Origin: Eledone cirrhosa
Lineage: Eukaryota
Assembly: GCA_964016885.1 (NCBI GenBank)
Contig: OZ024743.1
Coordinates: 25,296,001 to 25,360,000 of the forward strand
Direction of reading: 5' to 3'
Length of the DNA stretch: 64,000 nucleotides
Both the position numbers and the translations under genes were made by a program. The notes under the pieces were generated by a model, which was not told the origin of the DNA, searched no databases, and saw only the letters and a list, made by a program, of their open reading frames with translations. Shown here piece by piece: positions 26,032 through 26,070 of the stretch; positions within the stretch are counted from its first letter, which is position 1; every line of letters starts with the position of its first letter.

Positions 26032-26070
26032 TGAACCTGAAGATTGCGAAAGCATGAAAGTACTTGTTCA
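26032..26070 (+). ncRNA. Minimal type I hammerhead ribozyme (mirror copy at 24975-25013, minus strand)
   Basis: TGAAC - CTGAAGA - T TGC GAAA GCA T - GAAA - GTAC TT - GTTCA. Stem I TGAAC/GTTCA, palindromic stem III AGTACT, predicted cleavage after CUU (26065). Confidence 0.75.

Follow-up and report, generated by a model that had tools for sequence, protein, structure and literature searches.

The window (the whole 64,000-nucleotide stretch of Eledone cirrhosa DNA analysed here) holds hammerhead-shaped motifs in insertions of Penelope-like elements (PLEs) and in a retrozyme-like tandem array, with a U facing a U at positions 10.1 and 11.1, at the base of stem II. The features discussed below are:

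6504 to 6556, minus strand: intact U·U hammerhead of the 6549 family, with a 7-bp stem I and a 4-bp hairpin stem III
6557 to 6610, plus strand: inversion-junction copy of the 6549 family, with the matching 5' strand of stem I absent and stem III damaged
17122 to 21853, both arms: non-coding 310-bp tandem array, retrozyme-like, as two inverted arms between (TA)n tracts
19787 to 19829, plus strand: representative array hammerhead, with U·U at 19800/19813, a palindromic stem III and a predicted cut after 19823
24793 to 26262, no single strand: 5'-truncated Neptune-type PLE with two 3' ends back to back and (TA)n on both flanks
24975 to 25013, minus strand: hammerhead identical to the 26037 motif, carried by that insertion's inverted copy
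26032 to 26070, plus strand: type I hammerhead motif, with U10.1 (26044) opposite U11.1 (26055), a palindromic stem III and a predicted cut after 26065
26896 to 26975, both strands: decayed inverted pair resembling the 6549 family (assigned by eye)
32128 to 32197, minus strand: intact hammerhead-shaped motif in which CAGA (A at core position 4) is combined with U·U, at the 3' end of a Hydra-clade PLE
32286 to 32337, plus strand: second CAGA motif, in which a deletion has removed the 5' strand of stem I

In the motif at 26032-26070, stems I, II and III surround the core and stem I is the open one. Stem I pairs 26032-36 with 26066-70 (5 bp); the core CUGAAGA occupies 26037-43 and is followed by U10.1; stem II has 3 bp, after which come U11.1 and GAA; and stem III is a self-complementary 6-mer (26059-64; the 19793 motif has one too), with U17 at 26065. 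The type I core CUGANGA...GAAA...UH is found at 26037, at 25008, in the 310-bp array and at 6549, and is departed from by the 32179 family (A4) and by 26926 (A8). The usual purine-pyrimidine pair at 10.1-11.1 is replaced by U·U, and in the 26037 family this holds for 98 of the first 100 of 5,575 copies, in a search that left both positions free; such uniformity of young copies reflects recent amplification and not selection copy by copy. Among the four motifs folded, the hammerhead fold was the MFE structure for 26037 alone, with stems I and II present; it lay above the MFE by 1.5 (19793), 1.0 (6549) and 3.8 kcal/mol (the CAGA family), and the folding z-scores were unremarkable.

A full-length copy of the 26037 element (locus L021) has a 4.2-kb unit between two hammerheads, with an ORF1 of 476 aa (stop to stop) and an overlapping RT and GIY-YIG ORF of 775 aa. 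GxKF, DKG, CX4CxxC and CCHH were read by eye in this RT and GIY-YIG ORF (P0001), in line with the Neptune description (GxKF, DKG, a CX2-5CxxC linker and a GIY-YIG EN with CCHH); in Pfam, GIY-YIG passed its cut-off and RVT_1 narrowly missed its own (27.6 of 29.6 bits). We class the element as Neptune-type, a call made from motifs of which Nematis shares the linker. Named relatives of P0001 are mainly bivalve proteins. ORF1 and the RT ORF of L021 share ~90 nt (6467-6557); runs of A and of T lie where this overlap starts, and a programmed frameshift is possible there.

The 310-bp array carries eight hammerheads on the minus strand and seven on the plus strand, and no long ORF was found in it. It shares with retrozymes a make-up of non-coding tandem units of 170-400 bp, each with a type I hammerhead. 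In run X1, which may be the window's own source, variation of at least 5% within the 19787-19829 motif falls only at N7 (19797) and in loop II (19807, 19808). No RNA holder was listed for the 310-bp unit, which says nothing about its expression, and no autonomous partner was found among the fetched loci. Contigs of the unit of 340 nt in runs X4-X6 were considered as RNA circles and rejected as such, because tandem DNA alone accounts for them. The layout of near-identical 310-bp units in inverted arms recurs at loci L026 and L027, and resembles the inverted 5' copies of PLE insertions.

The 6549 family is tied to a Hydra-type endonuclease fragment at two loci, across 2.5-3 kb of homologous DNA. 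The initial annotation had listed motifs at 6.5 kb, 26926 and 32286. In the plus-strand copies at 6557 and 32286 the U·U strings are indeed present, but the intact copies are those on the minus strand at 6549 and 32179. The string at 26926 is present, but it has lost G8 (CTGACAA) and belongs to a decayed inversion-junction copy rather than to a sound motif; in its minus-strand partner (26918) stem II is broken.

A both-strand scan missed nothing that had been quoted: all motif strings were recovered at their positions. In the window the U..U core pattern has 21 matches against 0.19 expected, with 21 or more in 0 of 100 shuffles, although 15 of the 21 are copies of the one 310-bp tandem unit and so are not independent. 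Across the animal's own 3.0-Gb genome, with patterns that demand no stem pairing and hence count core-like strings and not verified ribozymes, U..U matches 102,946 times and its reversed-pattern control 2,172 times. The corresponding G..C count (with or without an extra base) is lower, at 76,046 against 3,380; C..Y in the same frame is close to background (5,278 against 4,121); and U..U cores lacking U4 number 53,945 against 5,456. A chance origin of the U·U motifs is thus excluded, and the genome as a whole prefers U·U over C-pyrimidine mismatches. Among the fetched loci, which were chosen by hand and are no random sample, six U·U families have different but pairing stems I, II and III; stem III is a palindromic 6-mer in three of them and a hairpin in the other three. 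Conserved U·U in PLE-type hammerheads, as the initial annotation claimed, is borne out by counts, stems and links to RT and GIY-YIG ORFs.

Two U's facing each other need not form a pair: one could be an extra nucleotide after A9 and the other an unpaired base before G12, with stem II starting one pair further out. The published core CUGANGAH of Cervera 2014 (PMC4209133), which includes an unpaired nucleotide, and the placing of both U's in core columns by Craig 2021 (PMC8557442) would accord with such an arrangement. We think it very improbable, given that the published extra nucleotide may be any H, but U fills the two positions here and C..Y lies near background. It also sits badly with a homologous G-C tandem family, which aligns without gaps to a U·U family through the hammerhead. 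These two families agree at 66% of 223 nt, and the differences in their stems I and II are compensatory; U·U and G-C thus occur in homologous families, and the 10.1-11.1 pair has therefore switched within one lineage. They lie at L027 1600-2200 and L109 4300-4900 and have units of 466-500 bp, and in both an octamer, ATGCAAAT, stands upstream of the hammerhead. We take this octamer to be a snRNA-type promoter element; the 310-bp unit is without it.

Contrary to what had been thought, the U·U mismatch is not new. Perreault 2011 (PMC3088659) names natural hammerheads with U10.1·U11.1 and, citing Ruffner 1990, describes it as the best-tolerated mispair; the mismatch is the same as ours, in a passage without retroelement context. 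Published PLE alignments, with which a comparison had been proposed, already document U·U for the Hydra clade: in File S2 of Craig 2021 (PMC8557442) it stands in 14 of 25 Hydra-clade rows (two sharing one motif), beside rows with G·U and U·C, although the Hydra section of that paper calls the hammerheads canonical and passes over U·U without comment. The U..U families there come from Hydra, a sea cucumber and a copepod, and share with those described here the U after A9, the U before G12, a short stem II, the 3' position and (TA)n; kinship with the clade is seen here in the protein motifs of the 32179 family and in the link of 6549 to a Hydra-type EN fragment. Unlike Hydra-clade PLEs, the 26037 motif sits in a two-ORF, Neptune-type element. 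In Fig S3 of Cervera 2014 (PMC4209133) U..U occurs in 2 of 56 rows (Hydra and Drosophila willistoni), with the placement relative to the GAAA column being our own reading, confirmed for Hydra by the motif in Craig's table. The minimal PLE hammerheads of that study resemble ours in pLTR location, palindromic stem III and a proposed dimer mode, but have a consensus of G10.1-C11.1 with an extra nucleotide.

Another close system is that of the axolotl (Cervera 2020, PMC7229834), where ~60,000 motifs with a U·U mismatch at the foot of helix II self-cleave in vitro. HHR_Amex2/Rtz_353 shares with our array the helix II-base U·U, tandem repeats of 300-350 bp, tens of thousands of copies and a weak stem III; in contrast, the window array lies within (TA)n as a pair of inverted arms, and it is for the axolotl element that cleavage and circular RNAs have been demonstrated. 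The variant is thus not specific to one lineage, as Hydra-clade PLEs and the axolotl have it too; of the earlier claim, the conservation of U·U stood and its lineage-specificity fell. As a published and active exception, U·U shows that a purine-pyrimidine pair at 10.1-11.1 is not a strict requirement, and as its presence in PLE hammerheads was already known, our finding adds no new chemistry.

The initial annotation saw in U·U a possible damper that slows cleavage or enforces cutting as dimers only. Most hammerheads strongly prefer G10.1-C11.1, which would fit such a role; nevertheless we give this reading very little credence. The U·U monomer of the axolotl was 22% cleaved in 1 h against 6% for a sister family, from which it differs in stem III also, and dimers did much better (PMC7229834), so that attenuation by U·U is not supported. 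Dependence on dimers would follow stem III instead, which in some U·U families is a palindrome and in others a hairpin of 4-5 bp.

We consider it quite probable that these motifs are type I hammerheads in PLE terminal repeats and in a retrozyme-like array, that the published U·U replaces G10.1-C11.1 in them and that they still cut themselves. The U·U would act as a stacked non-canonical pair in place of G-C, with the cut after position 17. As a narrow, non-Watson-Crick pair it would keep the stack under G12·A9. Cleavage is likely by analogy with the axolotl and with other PLEs. Where stem III is a 6-nt palindrome (26037, 19793), dimers between tandem copies would be the cutting form, and where it is a hairpin (6549, 32179), a monomer could suffice. 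Transcripts that read through or are multimeric would in this way yield RNA of unit length, to be reverse-transcribed into (TA)n targets. More than one origin of U·U from G-C is likely, perhaps with G·U as an intermediate produced by CpG decay of C11.1-G12. Alternatively, the 10.1-11.1 position may simply be loosely constrained, as suggested by another lineage, often with C4 and a long stem II (26360, minus; 26558, plus; loci L131, L138, L141 and L114), in which the pair varies among U-A, A·G, C·U and A·A. At L141 the hammerhead of this C4 lineage adjoins a Hydra-type ORF.

Standard searches fare poorly with these motifs. For two window motifs the Rfam hammerhead models gave no match at E<=10. 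In the single pair compared, 36.5 bits went to the G-C tandem family and 18.5 to its U·U homologue, against a cut-off of 52 bits. The expectation that strict searches overlook U·U is upheld in part, by absent or low scores for U·U, but the G-C relative falls short of the cut-off as well. An Rfam scan of the whole window returned only microsatellite-driven, miRNA-type matches among the 150 of 179 matches listed. Descriptors that require G-C at 10.1-11.1 would lose the majority of this genome's hammerhead-like core matches.

The 32179/32286 family is best described as a young, prolific Hydra-clade PLE. It fits the published description of that clade, which is a single ORF with a C-terminal GIY-YIG-type EN, RWK and DKT motifs, a CxCx5C linker and no CCHH, together with insertion at (TA)n, a 3' hammerhead and partial tandem and inverted copies. 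At 3.24-3.26 kb, this single-ORF element is slightly over the 'generally <3 kb' of that description. The 713-aa ORF of L107 (1-6001) has RWR, NKT and CNCRNRADC, compared by eye with Craig's description, and Pfam returned no match for a 501-aa fragment (P0003). The 86 scored matches to a query of this family are 95-100% identical.

Its motif at 32128-32197 can fold so that stem III is a hairpin and stem I is extended and bulged, and the CAGAAGA at 32286 is the normal core of the family and not a mutation: A4 is present in all 44 motifs of 30 ORF-bearing loci, and among the first 100 of 17,191 genome pattern matches A4 is found in 100 and U·U in 98. For older subfamilies, which may descend from few master lineages, a search that left the core free gave 191 matches, and a hand count of the first 100 found A4 in 93 and U4 in 2. 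Versions of the 32286 stem II with CTGAAGA appear to be mostly products of inversion junctions, as four of the five such T4 sites fetched have an inverted flank (two by script, two by eye).

This CAGA core may be unreported. A literature search that did not extend to the work of Lunse et al. 2017 on dimeric variants of PLE hammerheads found no natural A4 core, and no row of the Craig 2021 table (PMC8557442) has A4. The sole natural change at position 4 that we found in print is the U4C of a viroid (Ambros and Flores 1998, cited in PMC3088659), which is viable and less active in vitro; the C4 lineage at 26360/26558 is alike, whereas in the 32179 family the change is to a purine (A4) and, along with U·U, has become fixed in a retroelement of high copy number. 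In a mutagenesis screen (PMC9901934) single mutants of the CUGA turn had low activity. We tentatively suggest, at somewhat less than even confidence, that A4 with U·U, fixed and kept across subfamilies, is either an unreported working variant of the core that owes its rescue to the strength of stems I and III, or a dead fold kept for another purpose. Either outcome would bear on why Penelope-like elements carry hammerheads.

The second of these possibilities has a general form, in which the hammerhead fold is kept for a non-catalytic job, for example as a handle for RT/EN near the start of reverse transcription, with U·U, A4 and C4 tolerated and cutting weak or incidental. For Poseidon of Anolis, Frangieh 2024 (PMC11167929) reports that catalytic mutants of the hammerhead left insertion in vitro unaffected, that cleavage required protein and that RNA-seq ends at the cut site were unseen; Naiads thrive without canonical hammerheads; and the prolific family here bears A4, in the very turn where single mutants are poorly active. 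As a general account we nevertheless find it unlikely. The U·U hammerheads of the axolotl do cleave (PMC7229834), and compensated U3-A8 cores exist in the Eledone genome. Moreover the older A4 subfamilies, by the same hand count of 100 matches, keep the other core positions in 90-98 (G8 in 90, G12 in 94) while N7 is split among A (64), U (32) and G (4). Self-cutting hammerheads with a U·U pair remain our preferred reading, and the CAGA lineage is a natural case in which to test whether PLE retrotransposition needs hammerhead cleavage.

Other hammerhead-like sequences were met along the way. The compensated U3-A8 cores are at L108 8152 (minus), L114 5196 (plus) and L122 1606 (plus). The protein P0002 of L037 was considered as the partner of the neighbouring U·U tandem family and rejected as belonging to a separate Hydra-type element, downstream of which the sole core found is U3-A8 with U-A. 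A reading of U·U as the mark of Naiad 'HHR_core' elements was considered and given up, as the ORFs are of C-terminal EN types. Within the window, isolated core-like strings occur on the plus strand at 15672 (G-C, with no convincing stem I by eye) and at 23847. A 77-bp satellite of ~200 copies fills the last 18 kb (46230-64000) and has no hammerhead match, and another repeat, found in L107 too, is present in two copies at 11039-11870 and 36054-36559.
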